Shown piece after piece: positions 36,991 through 59,508 of a stretch of 64,000 bases of DNA. This DNA comes from an uncultured Bacilli bacterium (GTDB taxonomy: Bacteria > Bacillota_I > Bacilli_A > RF39 > UBA660). The translations under genes and the position numbers were made by a program. The notes under the pieces were generated by a model. The model was given only the letters and a program-made list of their open reading frames with translations. It had not been told where the DNA came from and ran no database searches. The stretch covers positions 740,312-804,311 of the forward strand of contig OZ007025.1 in NCBI GenBank assembly GCA_963931545.1, read 5' to 3'. The first letter of the stretch is position 1. Each line of letters starts with the position of its first letter.

Positions 36991-37776
36991 ATGGAAAGAT
37001 TAAATGACATATTAAGAGAACTTGGTATTTCTAAAGTGAAGTTAGCTAAATGTCTAGGAGTTTCTAGGCAGATGATTTATAATTATTTGGAGTTAGATGA
37101 TATTAATAAATGGCCAAAGGATAAAAAAGTTATTTTATTAAATATTCTTGGAATTAAATCTGCGGATGAACTTTATAATATTAAAGTTGATACAGATTAT
37201 ATTATGGATGTCGAAACTAGAATTAATAGTTTATTTGAAAATTCTAGTAAAAGTGAACTTGGCGAAGGAAATGTTATTTTTTCTGGTTTAGATGAAACAA
37301 GAAAAGAACTTTTGCACAATGTAATCGACGAAATAAAGGAACGTTTAGATGATGAGAAAGATGAAGATGGATATAATTCAATTCTTTATTTATATCATTA
37401 TTTACAGACAATGCCTAGTATGAAGGAATTAAAATATATTTTAGCTTATGTATCTAAGGTTGGTGGATATACAAAACCATATGAATTTGCTTTTGATGAA
37501 ACAGAACAATTTGTATTTGAAAGTATTTTGTTTTCAGCTTTTAATTTATATCATGCAGGAACATCTAGTAAAACTAGAATAGCGGAAACACATAAGAGAT
37601 TTGTTTCCCAAATTGAACATAAATTAGAAGATAAAATGAGTAGAACATTAGAAATGAATACATTAAAAATACAAGCAATGAAGGAATTAGGATTAACAGA
37701 AGTTAATGATGAAAATGTTGCTGAATTAATGTACAAAATTGATGAAATTCAAGCTCGTAAAGCTAGAGGAAATTAA
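36991..37776 (+). CDS. XRE-like HTH protein with an uncharacterised 190-aa C-terminal domain
   Basis: 261 aa. AGGAGGG RBS. N-terminal HTH LGISKVKLAKCLGVSRQMIYNYL. Confidence 0.6.
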   Translation: MERLNDILRELGISKVKLAKCLGVSRQMIYNYLELDDINKWPKDKKVILLNILGIKSADELYNIKVDTDYIMDVETRINSLFENSSKSELGEGNVIFSGLDETRKELLHNVIDEIKERLDDEKDEDGYNSILYLYHYLQTMPSMKELKYILAYVSKVGGYTKPYEFAFDETEQFVFESILFSAFNLYHAGTSSKTRIAETHKRFVSQIEHKLEDKMSRTLEMNTLKIQAMKELGLTEVNDENVAELMYKIDEIQARKARGN

Positions 37777-37801
37777 TCCGATAATATATGTTATGTTAAC
37801 T
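37774..37801. other. dif: Candidate XerCD dif recombination site (chromosome dimer resolution)
   Basis: TAATCCGATAA-TATATG-TTATGTTAACT. Matches dif sequences recalled from memory at 21/28 (B. subtilis) and 19/28 (E. coli), with 10/11 in the XerD arm of both. Sits at the + to - gene-orientation switch. Confidence 0.6.
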
Positions 37802-37819
37802 TGTATATAAAAGAAAAAT

Positions 37820-37853
37820 GGGTAGTATTTCTAATACTGATACTACTCTTTTA
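37820..37853 (+). terminator. Terminator of the HTH gene
   Basis: Stem GGGTAGTA/TACTACTC (one G-U pair) followed by TTTT. Confidence 0.5.
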
Positions 37854-38348
37854 TAATATTGGTTTATTTTATATTGTTTTTTTTGCTATTATTTTCTGTT
37901 TTGAATCTATTAAACCAGATGAAGATGTTAATAATAATAATACTTACTTATATTCTTAAAAATTTCTAACCAATGGTGAATATAACTTTTTAACTAAATT
38001 TATTTCCCTGGAAAATGAATTACATGTTTATATTTAGCTTCAGTTATTGAAAAAATGTCAAATATAGATATAATACTGGATTATTTAGAAACATTGACTT
38101 TGGTATTTTTAATGTAGACTTATAGTAATTTGTTATTAATTAAATTAAGGGATAAATCACATAATAATTTTAATAGGAAAAATATGATATTAAAGTTTAT
38201 GATATATGTTAAAGTATGAATTAAATTAATAACTTTTTTTACACGATATTTTAATGAAAAAGAGTATGTAAAGGGTAGTATAAGTTAAGAAATTAAAATA
38301 TCTTTTAATAATTTTTAGCACTCCCCTACCCTTATTTTATAAGGATTT

Positions 38349-39092
38349 TTAGCTTAACACGTGATTGACATACATAAATACAATTCCAATCAGAAAACTT
38401 AATACAGTTTTCTTTTTTTCTTTATACTTTAATGCTTCAGGTAATAATTCAATTATAGAAATATAAGTCATAATACCAGCAATAATAGCAAATAAACCAC
38501 CCATAATAGTATTATTAATAATTGGTTTTAGAAAAAGACATGCTAAAATGGCTCCTAGTGGCTCTGACATACCAGAAAGAAATGTTAAACCGATAGCTTT
38601 TTTCTTATTATTAGTTGCATAATATACTGGCATAGCTATACTAATACCTTCTGGAATATTATGCATAGCAATAGCAATAGTGATAGATATTCCGAGTTTT
38701 ATGTTTGTTTCAGATGATATATAAGTCGCAATACCTTCTGGTATATTATGAATAATTATTGCAATCATTGTAAATATACCTAATTTGTACAATTTGTTTG
38801 TATGGTTTAATTTCTTTGGTAAAATTTTATCTATTAATAAAGGAATCGTTAATCCAATAATAATAAATAAAGTTATATTTAAATAAATAGAATTTTTACT
38901 ATTACCTTGAAACATGGTTAGGCTTTCTGGAATTAAATCAAATATAGATACACTAAGCATTACTCCAGAAGCGAAAGCTAAAGCACATTTAATTATATTA
39001 TCTTTATTCCCTTTAATAAATATAAATAAAGAACCAATTAAAGTAGAAAGCCCTGCAACTATACATAATAAAAAAGGTAATAATTCATTCAT
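38349..39092 (-). CDS. ZIP-family divalent metal (zinc) transporter
   Basis: 247 aa. Duplicated HNIPEGIA/HNIPEGIS motifs. GGTGAGGAG RBS. Confidence 0.8.
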   Translation of the reverse strand: MNELLPFLLCIVAGLSTLIGSLFIFIKGNKDNIIKCALAFASGVMLSVSIFDLIPESLTMFQGNSKNSIYLNITLFIIIGLTIPLLIDKILPKKLNHTNKLYKLGIFTMIAIIIHNIPEGIATYISSETNIKLGISITIAIAMHNIPEGISIAMPVYYATNNKKKAIGLTFLSGMSEPLGAILACLFLKPIINNTIMGGLFAIIAGIMTYISIIELLPEALKYKEKKKTVLSFLIGIVFMYVNHVLS

Positions 39093-40351: not shown

Positions 40352-41227
40352 TTATTTTCCATGTGGATGAAATTCTTCATAATTTTTTTGTAATCTTTCA
40401 CTAGTAATATGAGTGTATATTTGTGTAGTTGATATATCACTATGCCCAAGTAATTCTTGAATACTTCTTAAATCGGCTCCATATTTTAGCAAATGAGTTG
40501 CGAAAGAATGCCTTAAAGTGTGTGGCGAAAAATCAGTTTTAATGTTATTTTCTAAGGCTATTTTTTTTAATATTTTAAAAAAACCTTGTCTAGTCATCTT
40601 ATTGCCATGATTATTTAAAAATAAATAATTATTTTCTCCATGTTTAAATAAAGTTGCTCTATGATATAAAATATAATTTTTTAAAGCTTCGGATGCATAA
40701 TTGTTTAAAGGAACAATCCTTTCTTTAGAACCCTTACCAAAAATTCTAACAGTAGAGTTCATTAAATCAATGTCATTGACATTTAAATTTATAAGTTCAC
40801 TAACTCTAAGCCCACTACTATACATAAGTTCAAACATAGCTTTATTTCTATAATCATAGTCAGTATTTAAATTAATATCTAATAATTTATTAACTTCTTC
40901 TTCTGATAAAACTTTAGGTAACTTTTGCCTTTTTTTAGGGTTAGTAATAGTAAAGATAGGGTTATTTTTACAATATTTATTTATTTCTAAAAATTTATAA
41001 AAACTTTTTAAAGTACTTATATTTCTTGAAACACTTGAACTATTTTCTTCTTTGGAAATATATTGAATATATGCTTGAATATCATTTTTGGATAGTGTTT
41101 TAAAATTTTTTTTTATGTACTTATCTACCTTAGATAAATCTCTTTTATATGAGGAAATTGTATTTTCGCTATATTTTTTTTCGAATCTTAAATAATCGGT
41201 AAATTTGTTTATTAAATTTTCATTCAT
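40352..41227 (-). CDS. XerC/XerD-family tyrosine recombinase
   Basis: 291 aa. Motifs SGLRVSEL and HTLRHSFATHLLKYGADLRSIQELLGHSDISTTQIYTH. Confidence 0.8.
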   Translation of the reverse strand: MNENLINKFTDYLRFEKKYSENTISSYKRDLSKVDKYIKKNFKTLSKNDIQAYIQYISKEENSSSVSRNISTLKSFYKFLEINKYCKNNPIFTITNPKKRQKLPKVLSEEEVNKLLDINLNTDYDYRNKAMFELMYSSGLRVSELINLNVNDIDLMNSTVRIFGKGSKERIVPLNNYASEALKNYILYHRATLFKHGENNYLFLNNHGNKMTRQGFFKILKKIALENNIKTDFSPHTLRHSFATHLLKYGADLRSIQELLGHSDISTTQIYTHITSERLQKNYEEFHPHGK

Positions 41228-41315: not shown

Positions 41316-42515
41316 ATGAGACCACTTGCTGATAGTTTAAGGCCTAATAAATTAGATGATGTTATTGGCCAAAAACATTTAATAGGTAAAGATAAAGTTT
41401 TATATAATCTTATTAAACATGGTAAAATATTTTCAATGATTTTATATGGTCCTTGTGGGACTGGTAAAACGACTTTAGCTTATACTTTAGTAAATGAACT
41501 AAATTTAAAATGTGAATTTTTAAATGCTGTTATTAATAGTAAAAAAGATTTAGATTTAGTTATTGAGAAAGCTAAAGTTAATGATGGTATCATTTTAATT
41601 ATGGATGAAATACATAGATTAAACAAGGATAAACAGGATTTATTACTCCCCTACTTAGAAAATGGTTTAATTACTATAATTGGCTTAACGACTGCTAATC
41701 CATATCATTCAATTAATCCTGCTATTAGAAGTAGATGTCAACTATTTGAGGTTAAAGCATTAACGGATAATGATATTGAATATGCCTTGAATAAAGCTAC
41801 TAATTATCTAGATAAAATAAATATTACTGATGAAGCTATATCTTATATAGCAAGATTAGCTAATGGCGATTTAAGATATGCTTATAATTTGTTAGAAGTT
41901 GCTTATTATTCTTCAGAAAATTTTAAAATATCTTTAGAAGATTTAAAAAAAATAAATAATAAACCAAGCTTATATATAGATAAAAATGATGATGGATATT
42001 ATGATGTTATTAGTGCTTTACAAAAATCTATTAGAGGTAGTGATGTTAATGCGGCATTACATTATTTAGCTAGATTAATAGTTGCGGAAGATTTAGATAT
42101 TATATTTAGAAGGTTATCTGTCATAGCTTATGAAGATATTGGACTAGCTAACCCAGCTATTGGTCCTAGATTAGAGGCGGCCATTAATGCAGCTGAAAGA
42201 GTTGGACTTCCAGAAGCTAGAATTCCTTTAGGCGAAATTGTCATAGATATGGCTTTATCTCCTAAATCAAATAGTGCGCACGTGGCTTTAGATATGGCTA
42301 TTAATGATGTTAAAATGGGACATGTAGGTAAAGTGCCAAGTCATATTAAAACTAATTCTAAAGATTATAAATATCCCCATAATTATAAAGGAGGATATAT
42401 TAAACAGCAATATTTACCTGATGAATTGAAAGAAAGAAGATATTATAATCCTAAAACTACCAGTAAATATGAAATGAACTTAAAAAACATTTACGATAAA
42501 ATTAATAATTTGTAA
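41316..42515 (+). CDS. rarA: Replication-associated recombination protein A (AAA+ ATPase)
   Basis: ATG at 41316 gives MRPLADSLRPNKLDDVIGQ. Walker A is GPCGTGKTT. The track GTG start at 41301 is less likely. Confidence 0.85.
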   Translation: MRPLADSLRPNKLDDVIGQKHLIGKDKVLYNLIKHGKIFSMILYGPCGTGKTTLAYTLVNELNLKCEFLNAVINSKKDLDLVIEKAKVNDGIILIMDEIHRLNKDKQDLLLPYLENGLITIIGLTTANPYHSINPAIRSRCQLFEVKALTDNDIEYALNKATNYLDKINITDEAISYIARLANGDLRYAYNLLEVAYYSSENFKISLEDLKKINNKPSLYIDKNDDGYYDVISALQKSIRGSDVNAALHYLARLIVAEDLDIIFRRLSVIAYEDIGLANPAIGPRLEAAINAAERVGLPEARIPLGEIVIDMALSPKSNSAHVALDMAINDVKMGHVGKVPSHIKTNSKDYKYPHNYKGGYIKQQYLPDELKERRYYNPKTTSKYEMNLKNIYDKINNL

Positions 42516-43026
42516 ATGTTTTTATTTTGTTAAATTCTTTACATTTTGCTTCTAATAATATGTAATTACAGCATCTATCTTTTACGTTATTTGGTAATTT
42601 GTTTTTTTGATATAGTTCATATAATAATTTTGATTTTTGATATATATCTTTTTTGTGCGTTGTTAACCATCTTAGTTGGTTTCTAAGTAAATCAATTCTA
42701 AATTTTTCTTGTTTATTGATTGGTTTATCATTTAAATCAAACACAATATAATTTTCTTGAGTCACAGGAATCATATTATTAAAATTTACTACTCCATATT
42801 CCCCATTATTAATTTTTAATAAGTCAATAGTATTTTTTAACTTTTTATGTTTTTCTTTGGGACTGGATAGTGGAGCAAAATATTCGCATTTGTCTATTTT
42901 AAACAATATTCCGACAAATGGTCTAAGTTCTTTATTACCAGCATTATACACCACTCTATTATCAAATTTTCTTAAATAATCACAATAATTAGAATTAACT
43001 TTTACAATTTTAATTTTTTTATACAT
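42502..43026 (-). CDS. toxN: Type III toxin-antitoxin system toxin, ToxN/AbiQ-family endoribonuclease
   Basis: 174 aa. AGGAGG RBS. Family-like N-terminal half: YLRKFDNRV...RPFVGILFKIDKCEYFAPLSSPKEKHKKL. Preceded by a tandem repeat array and a terminator. Confidence 0.75.
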   Translation of the reverse strand: MYKKIKIVKVNSNYCDYLRKFDNRVVYNAGNKELRPFVGILFKIDKCEYFAPLSSPKEKHKKLKNTIDLLKINNGEYGVVNFNNMIPVTQENYIVFDLNDKPINKQEKFRIDLLRNQLRWLTTHKKDIYQKSKLLYELYQKNKLPNNVKDRCCNYILLEAKCKEFNKIKTFTNY

Positions 43027-43093
43027 CAGTTACCTCCTTTTTTGTTAAGTCAAATATATCACAAACAAATGTATTTGTAGATAAAAATCAAAA

Positions 43094-43117
43094 AGATTAG
43101 AGTATGCTCTCTAATCT
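43094..43117 (-). terminator. Internal (attenuating) terminator between the antitoxin repeats and toxN
   Basis: Stem AGATTAGAG/CTCTAATCT with a 6-nt loop, followed by UUUUGAUUUUU on the - strand. Confidence 0.7.
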
Positions 43118-43119
43118 TC

Positions 43120-43235
43120 TTTTTTAGCTGCCATTTATAGAGCTGGCTTCACTCACTTTTTTAGCTGCCATTTATAGAGCTGGCTTCACTCACTTTTTTA
43201 GCTGCCATTTATAGGCTGGCTTCACCTGCTTTTTT
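43120..43235 (-). ncRNA. toxI: ToxI/AntiQ-like antitoxin RNA repeat array (3 units of 37, 37 and 36 nt, plus a degenerate partial unit extending to ~43251)
   Basis: Units 43120-43156 and 43157-43193 are identical. Unit 43194-43229 has a few changes. The transcribed-strand unit is GTGAGTGAAGCCAGCTCTATAAATGGCAGCTAAAAAA. There is no ORF. Confidence 0.7.
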
Positions 43236-43313
43236 AATCGCTATATTTGAGTAACCATACTGGTTATTCAGTATGACTACAAACTTCATTTTTTGAAGTG
43301 TTATAGCATTATT

Positions 43314-57080: not shown

Positions 57081-57106
57081 AAAATAAATCAGATTTAATC
57101 TGATTT
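57081..57106 (-). terminator. Terminator of the pilC-pilD operon
   Basis: Stem AAATCAGAT/ATCTGATTT with a 3-nt loop, followed by AUUUU on the - strand. Confidence 0.6.
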
Positions 57107-57866
57107 ACCTATAAAAATTAATGATTGTTTCAATATTAAATTGTAACAATAAAAGTAAGGTAGCGCCCGCAGCTAAAAATGGTCCAAAAGGTAAAATATG
57201 ATTTTTCTTTTTATATAAAATTAATAAGGCTATTGGTAAGCCGATTAAAGAGCCTACAAATATTGATAATATAGCTATTGGATAAGTTAAAACCATACCA
57301 AATATAAAGAGTAATTTAATATCTCCTCCACCCATGGACTCTTTTTTAAATAGAAAATCGCCTAATTTTTTAAGTAAAAACATGGTTAGGAAAGCTAGTG
57401 TTCCATTTAATAAACTATATAAGGCTGCTTCTAAACCATTAATGCATAATATTTCGGCAAATAAAATGATTGTGAAAGTAATTAAAACTTCATCGGGTAT
57501 TATAAGGTAATGATAGTCACTTATAACTATAATAATCATCATTGAAATAAATGTTAAGGCAATAATTAAATTTAAGTTTAAACCAAATGATAAATAAGAC
57601 AAAACAAATAATATACCTGTTAAAGTTTCGAATATAGGATAAAATAATGATATTTTTTTATGACAGTGCTTACATTTACCGCCTTGAAAAATATACGATA
57701 AAATAGGTATTAATTCAAAGAAAGTTAATTTATGATTACAATTGGTACAATGACTTGGTGGATATACAATTGATTCTCCTTTTGGTAATCTATATCCAAC
57801 TACATTGTAAAAGGAACCAAAGATGGTTCCTATTATGAATAAAAATATACAAATAATTATTTCCAT
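57105..57866 (-). CDS. pilD: Prepilin peptidase (A24 family)
   Basis: Start taken at MEIIICIFLF (57866). Zinc-knuckle cysteines CTNC...CKHC. Active-site region GGGDIKLL. Confidence 0.8.
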   Translation of the reverse strand: MEIIICIFLFIIGTIFGSFYNVVGYRLPKGESIVYPPSHCTNCNHKLTFFELIPILSYIFQGGKCKHCHKKISLFYPIFETLTGILFVLSYLSFGLNLNLIIALTFISMMIIIVISDYHYLIIPDEVLITFTIILFAEILCINGLEAALYSLLNGTLAFLTMFLLKKLGDFLFKKESMGGGDIKLLFIFGMVLTYPIAILSIFVGSLIGLPIALLILYKKKNHILPFGPFLAAGATLLLLLQFNIETIINFYR

Positions 57867-57876
57867 AACATCACCT

Positions 57877-59508
57877 TTAGGCTTGAATTTGACTATACAT
57901 TGAAAACATTGGTACAACAATTGATAATACGATTACTCCAACCATTGCTGTTAACATAATAATTAAAGCTGGTTCAACAAATGTTTTAATACGTGTAACT
58001 GAATTTTTATGTAAATCTTGATAATATAATGATATTTTATACATCATTTCTGGTAGTTGACCACTTCTTTCTCCAGTAACAATCATTTCATAAGCTGGCA
58101 ATGGAAAGGCCCACTGGTTTTTAAAGGCTAATGAAATTGATTTTCCTTGAGAAATATTGTTTATTGCTTTTTGAATTAATTCTTTATATATTTCATTATT
58201 AGTTACTTTATTTAAAATTTTCATACTATCTGTGATAAAAACATTATGTGAAAGCAAAGAAGAAAATGTTTTAGTAAATGTAGTTACTTCTTTATATATG
58301 ATAACACTACCAAATACTGGCAGATGCATTAATATCCATTGTACTGTTTTTCGATATGCTTTAACATTTTTATATAAATAAATACTTAAAATTAATAATA
58401 TAACAATGGCTATTCCTATGTATATAATATATTTTTGTAAAAATTGACTGAGTGCTAAAACGGCAGAAGTGATTGCTGGTATTTTAGTGCTATCCATTGT
58501 GTTATAAATTTCGATAAATTTAGGAACTACATATAGCATGATGAATGTTCCAACTCCAATTGCAATTACAAAAATAATTGCGGGATACATCATTGCTGTA
58601 ATCATTGCTTTTCTAGTAGCTTCTATTTCTGTAAAATAGGCTTCCATATCATCTAATGTTTCTGGAAGTTCTCCTGTCATTTCTGCGGTTTTAACCATAT
58701 TAATTAAAATATTAGGGAAAGTGTTTCCTTGTTTAGCAAGTGCTTCACTAAAACTTTTTCCAGTAGTTAAATCATAACTTAATGTGGCTAAAATTCTTTT
58801 ATATTTTTCATTTTTAAATTGTTTTGTTAATATTTTTATAGCCTCGGCTAAGGGAATACCAACTTTTAAATAAGTAGAAACTTGAGCCAAAAAGAAAATT
58901 AAATCATGTGTTTTAAATTTATCCCCTGTTTTTCCAACACTATTATGTGAAAAATTTATCCATATATTTGTTTTAATTTTATAAATTTTATATCCCTGAG
59001 TTTTTAAATATGAATGCACTTCAACTAAAGAATATGCAGCGAAATAGCCTTTTACTATTTTTCCTTCTGGATTTCTTGCAATATATTCATAAATACGTTT
59101 TTTGCTTGTTTTTTTTGCTTCAGGGCCATTATAATTAATTATCATTTCCTGAGTATCTTTATATTTATCTTTAATTTCAGTGCTGCCAATTTTTGTGTTT
59201 AATAATTTACTTAGTTTTTTTGAAAAAGATTCTTTTTCTTTTGGTGTATCTTTGTTAGTCTTTATGTTTTTTTCTCTATTATGTTCAGCTAATAATAATT
59301 CGGTTTTTTTATAACGATTTTCGGTTTTTTGTGATTTGATAACAGGCTTTTTTGCTGTGTTAGTTGGGGTAAATAGCTTTGCCATAATAGTTGGAAATGC
59401 CATTATTCCCAAAAAGACATATCTAAAGAATTTACCAATAGCTTTAAATAATTCTATAATACCATGATAGACATAAATGAATGGGGATAACAAAAATTTA
59501 AAGTTCAT
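57877..59508 (-). CDS. pilC: Type IV pilus/T2SS platform protein (PilC/GspF family) with a ~135-aa N-terminal extension
   Basis: 543 aa with two T2SSF-type repeats (GIPLAEAIKIL..., GKSISLAF...). The extra N-terminus has a hydrophobic segment and a Lys-rich tract. Confidence 0.75.
   Translation of the reverse strand: MNFKFLLSPFIYVYHGIIELFKAIGKFFRYVFLGIMAFPTIMAKLFTPTNTAKKPVIKSQKTENRYKKTELLLAEHNREKNIKTNKDTPKEKESFSKKLSKLLNTKIGSTEIKDKYKDTQEMIINYNGPEAKKTSKKRIYEYIARNPEGKIVKGYFAAYSLVEVHSYLKTQGYKIYKIKTNIWINFSHNSVGKTGDKFKTHDLIFFLAQVSTYLKVGIPLAEAIKILTKQFKNEKYKRILATLSYDLTTGKSFSEALAKQGNTFPNILINMVKTAEMTGELPETLDDMEAYFTEIEATRKAMITAMMYPAIIFVIAIGVGTFIMLYVVPKFIEIYNTMDSTKIPAITSAVLALSQFLQKYIIYIGIAIVILLILSIYLYKNVKAYRKTVQWILMHLPVFGSVIIYKEVTTFTKTFSSLLSHNVFITDSMKILNKVTNNEIYKELIQKAINNISQGKSISLAFKNQWAFPLPAYEMIVTGERSGQLPEMMYKISLYYQDLHKNSVTRIKTFVEPALIIMLTAMVGVIVLSIVVPMFSMYSQIQA

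Follow-up and report, generated by a model that had tools for sequence, protein, structure and literature searches.

A probable dif site at a gene-orientation switch in an uncultured RF39 bacterium, with a neutral-site skew that does not reverse beside it

We examined a 64-kb stretch of contig OZ007025.1 from an uncultured Bacilli bacterium, hereafter the window, around the 28-mer TAATCCGATAATATATGTTATGTTAACT at 37774–37801 on the + strand. This 28-mer is very probably the chromosomal dif of an uncultured gut bacterium of the RF39 / CAG-822 lineage (Ca. Coprosoma-like). It lies between a block of + strand genes and a block of − strand genes, 2.6 kb from a xerD gene, with two genes between. The features at the locus are listed below, in base pairs (bp) of the window, with protein lengths in amino acids (aa).

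36991–37776, + strand: gene for an Xre-like helix-turn-helix (HTH) protein of 261 aa; its stop codon TAA forms bases 1–3 of the site, and it is the last gene of the + block
37774–37801, + strand: the probable dif site, 28 bp, TAATCCGATAA-TATATG-TTATGTTAACT, identified by sequence, uniqueness, score and conservation
37774–37784, + strand: left (XerC-type) arm TAATCCGATAA, with predicted binding by XerC
37785–37790, + strand: central region TATATG, 6 bp; relatives differ at its last base alone (G, A or C)
37791–37801, + strand: right (XerD) arm TTATGTTAACT, invariant in related loci but for one
37777–38348, no strand assigned: convergent intergenic region, the switch point of gene orientation
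37820–37854, + strand: hairpin (GGGUAGUAU(U)/(G)AUACUACUC) followed by UUUUAU, which probably serves the HTH gene as intrinsic terminator
38349–39092, − strand: zupT, first gene of the − block and conserved right neighbour of dif in relatives
40352–41227, − strand: xerD, a tyrosine recombinase of 291 aa, above the TIGR02225 cutoff and with 1A0P as best structure

The first-pass annotation had placed a 28-mer of 11-6-11 dif architecture at this position, and both its sequence and its coordinates are exact. The layout, with inner palindromic ATAA/TTAT ends, is a criterion for dif, and the palindrome sought by Kono et al. 2011 at positions 7–12 and 17–22 is present as GATAAT / GTTATG, with 4 pairs (A-T, T-A, A-T, A-T). 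Read from the sequence, the arms are asymmetric, being 5/11 palindromic, and in this they are comparable to dif sites served by two recombinases. For B. subtilis (ACTTCCTAGAATATATATTATGTAAACT) as for E. coli (GGTGCGCATAATGTATATTATGTTAAAT), the reference site used in the annotation agrees letter for letter with the seed of Kono et al. 2011 (PMC3025954). The identities it had drawn from them are likewise right, at 21/28 for B. subtilis, 19/28 for E. coli and 10/11 over the right arm for both. The E. coli identity is unremarkable by itself, since 4 of the 28-mers in the window reach 19/28.

As a whole, the 28-mer is significant by a log-odds matrix. Built from 33 distinct predicted Firmicutes dif sites (Kono et al., supplementary file 2) and set against window composition, it gives the 28-mer 22.7 bits, versus 9.5 for the runner-up among ~128,000 window positions. 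Under a background of independent, identically distributed bases, 6e-4 hits at 22.7 bits are expected per window and 0.015 per 1.5 Mb. Allowing 2 mismatches, the loose core ATAA-N6-TTATGTTAA is about as frequent in the window as chance predicts (42 found versus 39 expected). No second copy of the 28-mer is present in the window, even when 3 mismatches are allowed, and the copy number is likewise one in each site-bearing locus (20 relatives with the XerD locus and 5 same-species contigs) and in each of 120 metagenome stretches.

To place the site among relatives, the neighbouring recombinase was used in a scan with one genome per species, which gave 43 loci. The nearest belong to uncultured Bacilli, Firmicutes bacterium CAG:822 and Ca. 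Coprosoma; these are members of the GTDB genus and family CAG-822 of the order RF39 (PMC8035907), and two of them are complete 1.5 Mb chromosomes. Aligned with the dif of these related genomes, the 28-mer is kept with 0–3 changes in ~20 related loci, 2.2–4.9 kb downstream of xerD, and same-species contigs carry it in identical form. The positions that vary appreciably among relatives are the outer 3–4 bases of the left arm (TAAT, AAAT or ACTT, by clade) and the last base of the centre. The inner left arm TCCGATAA is conserved among them and also occurs in the predicted dif of Brachyspira and Desulfotomaculum, organisms with both XerC and XerD. In the distant relatives L026 and L028, whose XerD is 46–47% identical, the site lies in the same syntenic convergent gap, and the rest of the gap is unalignable. 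L028 carries ACTTCGTATAATATATATTATGTTAACT, which is the published B. weihenstephanensis dif, and the L026 variant reads ATTTCG..., with one outer left-arm base different.

Beyond these relatives, a 25-base core, TCCGATAATATATNTTATGTTAACT, is present in at least 120 contigs from gut, marine, soil and sediment metagenomes, once in each, and these contigs span 21–71% GC. Where at least 1.5 kb of flank is available on each side (44 contigs), the nearest open reading frames (ORFs) are convergent in 24, and the coding DNA is 78% + on the XerC-arm (left) side and 81% − on the XerD-arm (right) side. The single-copy, convergent-gene behaviour of the core is that of a canonical cross-phylum dif.

Two further observations concern the distribution of the site. 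Six predicted viral contigs in IMG/VR (L050–L055), of unrelated hosts and 36–49% GC, carry a 22-base dif core, CYGATAATATATATTATGTTAACT; these could represent elements that exploit Xer, or else stretches of host DNA bordering a prophage. In the close relative L011 (10013–16991; XerD 80% identical, record labelled Sphaerochaetaceae), xerD is followed by a mscL-like gene and other + genes, and no dif is found within 6 kb of xerD, which points either to a rearrangement or to faulty binning or assembly.

The gene at 40352–41227 had been assigned to the XerC/XerD family, and its product can be placed more narrowly. It scores 355.5 bits against the TIGR02225 equivalog (cutoff 329.6), 331.7 against the XerC model, slightly below the cutoff of 335.15, and 125 against the XerS model, for which the cutoff is 267. 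The best solved structure is E. coli XerD (1A0P, E = 1.7e-61), with XerH a distant match. The catalytic motifs align as RVSEL, HTLRHSFATH and LGHSDISTTQIYTH (Arg, His-x-x-Arg, His, Tyr), and by these motifs the XerD appears catalytically intact. An MTRQ segment also aligns, corresponding to the FtsK-contact region described in a review (PMC5357621).

By analogy with the XerCD paradigm, this XerD would bind the invariant right arm, and a XerC-type partner encoded outside the window would bind the left arm. The two would then exchange strands across the 6-bp TATATG, probably under the control of an FtsK/SpoIIIE-type translocase at the septum, and chromosome dimers would be converted to monomers. 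As to the polarity of FtsK-orienting polar sequences (KOPS) or SpoIIIE recognition sequences (SRS), GAGAAGGG is absent from the window and GAAGAAG is polar on the right only, a signal confounded by purine-rich coding strands. The polar words found de novo in the window are A-rich coding-strand words.

Gene orientation switches at the site, with 24 + and 4 − genes to the left and 2 + and 21 − genes to the right, and this switch is kept in all relatives. The first-pass annotation had counted 21 of 23 genes on the − strand to the right, which agrees with our count, and 24 of 29 on the + strand to the left, which does not. In the window, cumulative G−C rises steeply to ~38 kb, reaches a plateau, peaks at 42.7 kb and then falls. 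Whatever the gene class, the coding strand has an excess of G at codon position 1 (+0.48 to +0.53). The flip in bulk skew arises from this codon position, that is, from gene direction, and is thus not independent of gene orientation. The raw skews are asymmetric between the two sides, with GC skew at +0.2 to +0.3 on the left versus −0.1 on the right, and AT skew at ~0 on the left versus −0.13 on the right. At fourfold-degenerate sites, the coding-strand GC skew by side and gene strand is as follows.

Left of dif, + genes: −0.14 (G155/C204)
Left of dif, − genes: −0.65 (G9/C42; 4 genes)
Right of dif, − genes: −0.60 (G75/C301)
Right of dif, + genes: +0.03 (G17/C16; 2 genes)

Were the forks to meet at dif, left/+ and right/− would be the two leading-strand classes and similar skews would be expected of them, but the right/− genes resemble the left/− genes. 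The left/+ and right/− classes differ strongly (Fisher p = 1e-11; per-gene Mann-Whitney p = 6e-4), as do right/− and right/+ (p = 1.3e-4), while the difference between left/− and right/− is not significant. The + strand of the window is G-rich at neutral sites on both sides of dif, and the mutational signature of the fork does not reverse there. The annotation's proposal of a probable replication terminus is partly supported, by gene orientation and bulk GC skew, which both switch at the site, and is contradicted by the fourfold-site skew.

This pattern extends through the clade. In all 16 close relatives with data, the left/+ skew is above that of right/−, which ranges from −0.47 to −0.89, and the right/+ genes reach +0.24 to +0.65 in 12 of the 16. 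Synonymous sites in these relatives are presumably saturated (their XerD is 68–83% identical), in which case the skew would be an ongoing bias and not a relic. The pattern persists to the equivalent of window position 69.5 kb in ENA ERZ21549406 tig00001728, a 445-kb contig with 100% identity to the window. As a control, other taxa with the same dif core show equal left/+ and right/− skew in ~30/37 contigs (|z| < 2), compared with z = 6.3 in the RF39-like contig L059 and z ~7 in the window, the latter calculated from the G/C counts. The genes right of dif do not form a highly expressed group. The sequence beyond the window's right end (L176 14988–19906, window-equivalent 64604–69522) encodes, all on the − strand, an SMC gene, two small ORFs and an IS605-type OrfB/TnpB gene.

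The fit to the profile, a conservation that reaches beyond that of the flanks, the single copy per contig, the position at a gene-block junction and the intact XerD lead us to identify the 28-mer as a canonical XerCD dif, in itself ordinary textbook biology. The dif-like XerCD site of the first-pass annotation is upheld by the same profile score, by conservation both in relatives and across phyla, and by its single copy, convergent genes and nearby XerD. Several points weigh against this identification or limit it. Uniqueness was assessed over the 64-kb window plus loci of 5–20 kb, and 1 of 200 first-order Markov simulations equalled the matrix score of the 28-mer, so that the score is strong but not decisive alone in DNA of 25% GC. 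With XerD as tblastn query, no further tyrosine recombinase came to light in the window, and FtsK/SpoIIIE was not searched for. The fourfold-site skew without reversal argues against dif as the point of fork convergence, although not against its identity as dif. Proximity of the recombinase gene to the site hints at an alternative in which this XerD-like enzyme serves both arms without a partner, in the manner of XerS or XerH. The gene stays 2.2–4.9 kb from dif throughout the clade, including in relatives whose XerD is 46–54% identical, and proximity of gene and site is a possible hallmark of such systems (PMC5357621). Moreover, the gene near dif is usually xerC, not xerD (Kono 2011, PMC3025954), and these genomes are reduced, at ~1.5 Mb. 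We nonetheless consider a single-recombinase module improbable, as the site has a canonical 11-6-11 layout with two dissimilar arms, the left of which is common to organisms with XerC and XerD, and the 291-aa protein scores as XerD and not as XerS (125 versus 267), with XerH distant. Furthermore, xerD is not adjacent to dif and has a different context in L011, and the 28-mer and 291-aa XerD show neither the 31-bp site with an 11-bp centre, or difH-type site, nor the adjacent ~355-aa enzyme that would mark such a module. It is more improbable still, to the point of being very unlikely, that the 28-mer is no recombination site at all, but an AT-rich near-palindrome that arose by chance, an operator bound by the adjacent HTH protein, or the attachment site of an integrated element or plasmid. 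The 25% GC background with its one equalling simulation, the abutting HTH gene and the six viral contigs with the 22-base core could each be read in this way. However, conservation of the core across phyla extends to contigs with no HTH gene, the six viral contigs are unrelated and of 36–49% GC, the context is housekeeping and chromosomal, and we find in the window no second dif-like copy or half-site pair and no flanking mobile-element genes. Arm-only matches in the window with at most 1 mismatch (4 extra for the XerD arm, 2 extra for the XerC arm) are within a chance level estimated by hand (~8 for the XerD arm). The HTH operator was rejected because the core is kept where the HTH gene is absent and because holA replaces that gene in some RF39-like contigs. 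An integrative mobile element exploiting Xer (IMEX) or a plasmid cer-like site was rejected on the single copy (at most 3 mismatches), the conserved housekeeping flanks and the 1.5 Mb chromosomes, and the plasmid alternative raised with the first-pass annotation is excluded by the housekeeping neighbours and by relatives in which the locus lies on 1.5 Mb chromosomes.

With the 28-mer taken as dif, the simplest explanation of the skew anomaly is that the site lies at the replichore boundary defined by gene orientation, while the left fork passes it, traverses 32 kb or more of head-on genes and meets its partner further right. Unequal replichores or a polar fork barrier would be the cause. We hold this reading tentatively, at somewhat under an even chance. 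It is favoured by the likeness of the right/− fourfold skew to left/− and its distance from left/+ (the Fisher test above), by the agreement of all 16 close relatives and the persistence of the pattern to the equivalent of 69.5 kb, by the equal skews in ~30/37 contigs of other taxa with the same core, and by the asymmetry of the raw GC and AT skews. A weak hint also comes from the two complete relatives, in which dif has the same orientation and sits 38.5% and 43.7% of the way along the record; on the assumption that both records begin at dnaA, their midpoints would lie to the right of dif, by 177 and 95 kb. On the other hand, this reading needs 21/23 genes to be head-on over more than 26 kb, which is unusual for a Bacilli genome, the origin position in the complete records is assumed, and the data come from 70 kb of this genome, with 2 genes in the right/+ class and 4 in the left/− class within the window. 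The other reading, that dif is the true terminus and the fourfold skew is non-replicative, for example a product of regional or gene-specific codon usage, is possible but rather more doubtful. Surveys place dif 0–1.4% of the genome from the GC-skew shift point (PMC3025954), and both gene orientation and bulk skew switch at the site. The fourfold C fraction is 13% in right/− versus 7% in left/+ genes, the genes on the right are richer in GC and use more codons ending in C, and the skews of the distant relatives L026, L028 and L102 are weak and roughly symmetric. However, the adjacent, divergent rarA (+) and xerD (−) have opposite coding-strand skews, which amounts to the same + strand bias, the right/+ genes are G-rich in 12/16 close relatives, and the right-hand genes are ordinary. 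We know of no codon-usage effect that is tied to the strand instead of the gene.

On balance, it is possible, and we propose it with reserve, that in CAG-822 / RF39 dif and the orientation boundary are uncoupled from the meeting of the forks, with one fork regularly passing dif and going on through tens of kb, possibly 95–177 kb, of head-on genes. If true, this would be a natural, clade-wide case in which mutational skew disagrees with the orientation and dif boundary. Were it confirmed, bulk GC skew and gene orientation could mark a terminus at dif while forks meet elsewhere, and the clade would lend itself, as a natural system, to the old problem of whether dif is where replication finishes. 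The non-reversing skew at neutral sites is the sole part of the locus that could teach something new. The location of dif in itself fixes the replichore boundary in a lineage known from metagenome assemblies alone, and is useful for assembly checks, genome orientation and coverage-based growth estimates.

The site also overlaps a transcription unit, as the first-pass annotation had observed: TAA of the HTH stop codon forms its first three bases, and a hairpin and U-run follow. The probable terminator hairpin (37820–37848) has a 9–10 bp stem, followed by the U-run, and a hairpin with a T-run follows dif in all close relatives. A consensus terminator scanner missed the 37820–37848 hairpin because its loop is 9 nucleotides (nt) long. 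Lying between the stop codon and the terminator, dif is therefore probably transcribed as the 3′ end of the HTH mRNA, within its 3′ untranslated region (UTR); nothing suggests that transcription of dif affects the function of the site.

The HTH gene itself (window 36991–37776; L026 13155–13931; also L059, L060, L102, L150, L168 and others) encodes an almost invariant 46-aa N-terminus, and in RF39-like contigs it ends at dif or at most 500 nt away, down to 43% identity. The protein has no significant Pfam family, with HTH_7 alone below threshold and Pfam and PHROG matches that are faint. It has no match among solved structures, Foldseek gave only weak matches to Xre, HipB and Stl-type HTH proteins, and the AlphaFold model is poor (pLDDT, the predicted local distance difference test, 62.7). 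The HTH gene was considered as a dif-associated factor and rejected: holA takes its place in L087, L090 and L132, so that the link between the HTH gene and dif looks like conserved gene order and not function. In these three metagenome contigs (21–25% GC), which belong to one RF39-like group, holA is on the + strand directly left of dif, whereas in the window it lies to the right on the − strand; this difference points to a rearrangement with one of its ends at dif or close by.

To the left of dif, the window carries, all on the + strand and in this order, mnmA, a GtrA-like gene, a 142-aa membrane ORF, a sulfatase gene resembling lipoteichoic acid (LTA) synthase and the 261-aa HTH gene that ends in dif. 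To the right, the order is zupT (−), an ArsP_2 permease (−), xerD (−), rarA (+), toxN (−), holA (−) and then a long − block, and the right-hand genes include a two-component system, ATP-binding cassette (ABC) exporters, deacetylases, gpmI and pilC. The gene order spoIIM-mnmA-HTH-dif-zupT-...-xerD-rarA recurs in RF39-like contigs. A type III toxin-antitoxin locus occupies window 42502–43236, comprising toxN on the − strand (PF13958, E = 1e-45) and, upstream of it, 3.2 direct repeats of 37 nt (43119–43236, 95% matches) that fit a ToxI-like antitoxin RNA. Related genomes have no such locus between rarA and holA, which makes it an accessory insertion, ~5 kb from dif. Genes for a prepilin peptidase and a PilC/GspF-type protein (57105–59508), of a type IV pilus or competence system, are present in this reduced RF39 genome. 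Rfam gave no family, including those of transfer and ribosomal RNA, anywhere in the 64-kb window.

Among characterized systems, the closest comparison is with the dif of B. subtilis, on which CodV (XerC) and RipX (XerD) act. The two sites share the 28-bp length, the 11-6-11 layout and the ATAA/TTAT inner ends, with 10/11 identity in the XerD arm and 5/6 in the centre within the overall 21/28, and the B. subtilis site is also found at the bulk GC-skew shift point of a Firmicute (PMC3025954). They differ in the left arm, where identity is only 6/11, and in the centre, which here ends in G. The present locus is also distinct in having xerD at a distance of 2.6 kb, and in the position of the site across a stop codon and probably within a 3′ UTR. 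The survey of Kono et al. 2011 included no RF39 genome (PMC3025954), yet several of its predicted sites are close to the 28-mer. The Exiguobacterium sibiricum site is identical over the last 22 bases, including the TATATG centre, that of Brachyspira hyodysenteriae matches at 24/28, with 10/11 in the left arm, and that of Leuconostoc mesenteroides at 23/28. The right arm matches the published dif of Bacillus anthracis and Exiguobacterium at 11/11. Compared with these sites, the outer left arm TAAT/AAAT is specific to the CAG-822 clade. The sole Tenericutes entry of the survey, Acholeplasma laidlawii, likewise has a classical 28-bp predicted dif in a wall-less or reduced low-GC lineage; by eye, it agrees with ours at ~20/28, with 10/11 in the right arm, and differs in the centre (GTATAT) and the left arm.

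The XerS/difSL systems of streptococci and lactococci and the XerH/difH systems of Helicobacter and Campylobacter resemble the present locus in keeping a recombinase gene near the site over long evolution (PMC5357621). In those systems the site is 31 bp long or atypical in other ways and the recombinase has ~355 aa, whereas here we observe a 28-mer and a 291-aa XerD that is 2–5 kb away and not adjacent. Finally, the locus bears on the debate over whether replication terminates at dif, of which the work of Hendrickson and Lawrence 2007 and of Kono et al. 2011 and 2012 is reportedly a part. Two papers on this question (PMC3025954; PMC3317982) argue that dif and the termination point need not coincide, and that dif may lie at the bulk skew shift point while termination occurs elsewhere, as may be the case here. 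What differs in the present clade is that neutral-site skew on one hand, and orientation and bulk skew on the other, disagree right beside dif, and do so clade-wide.

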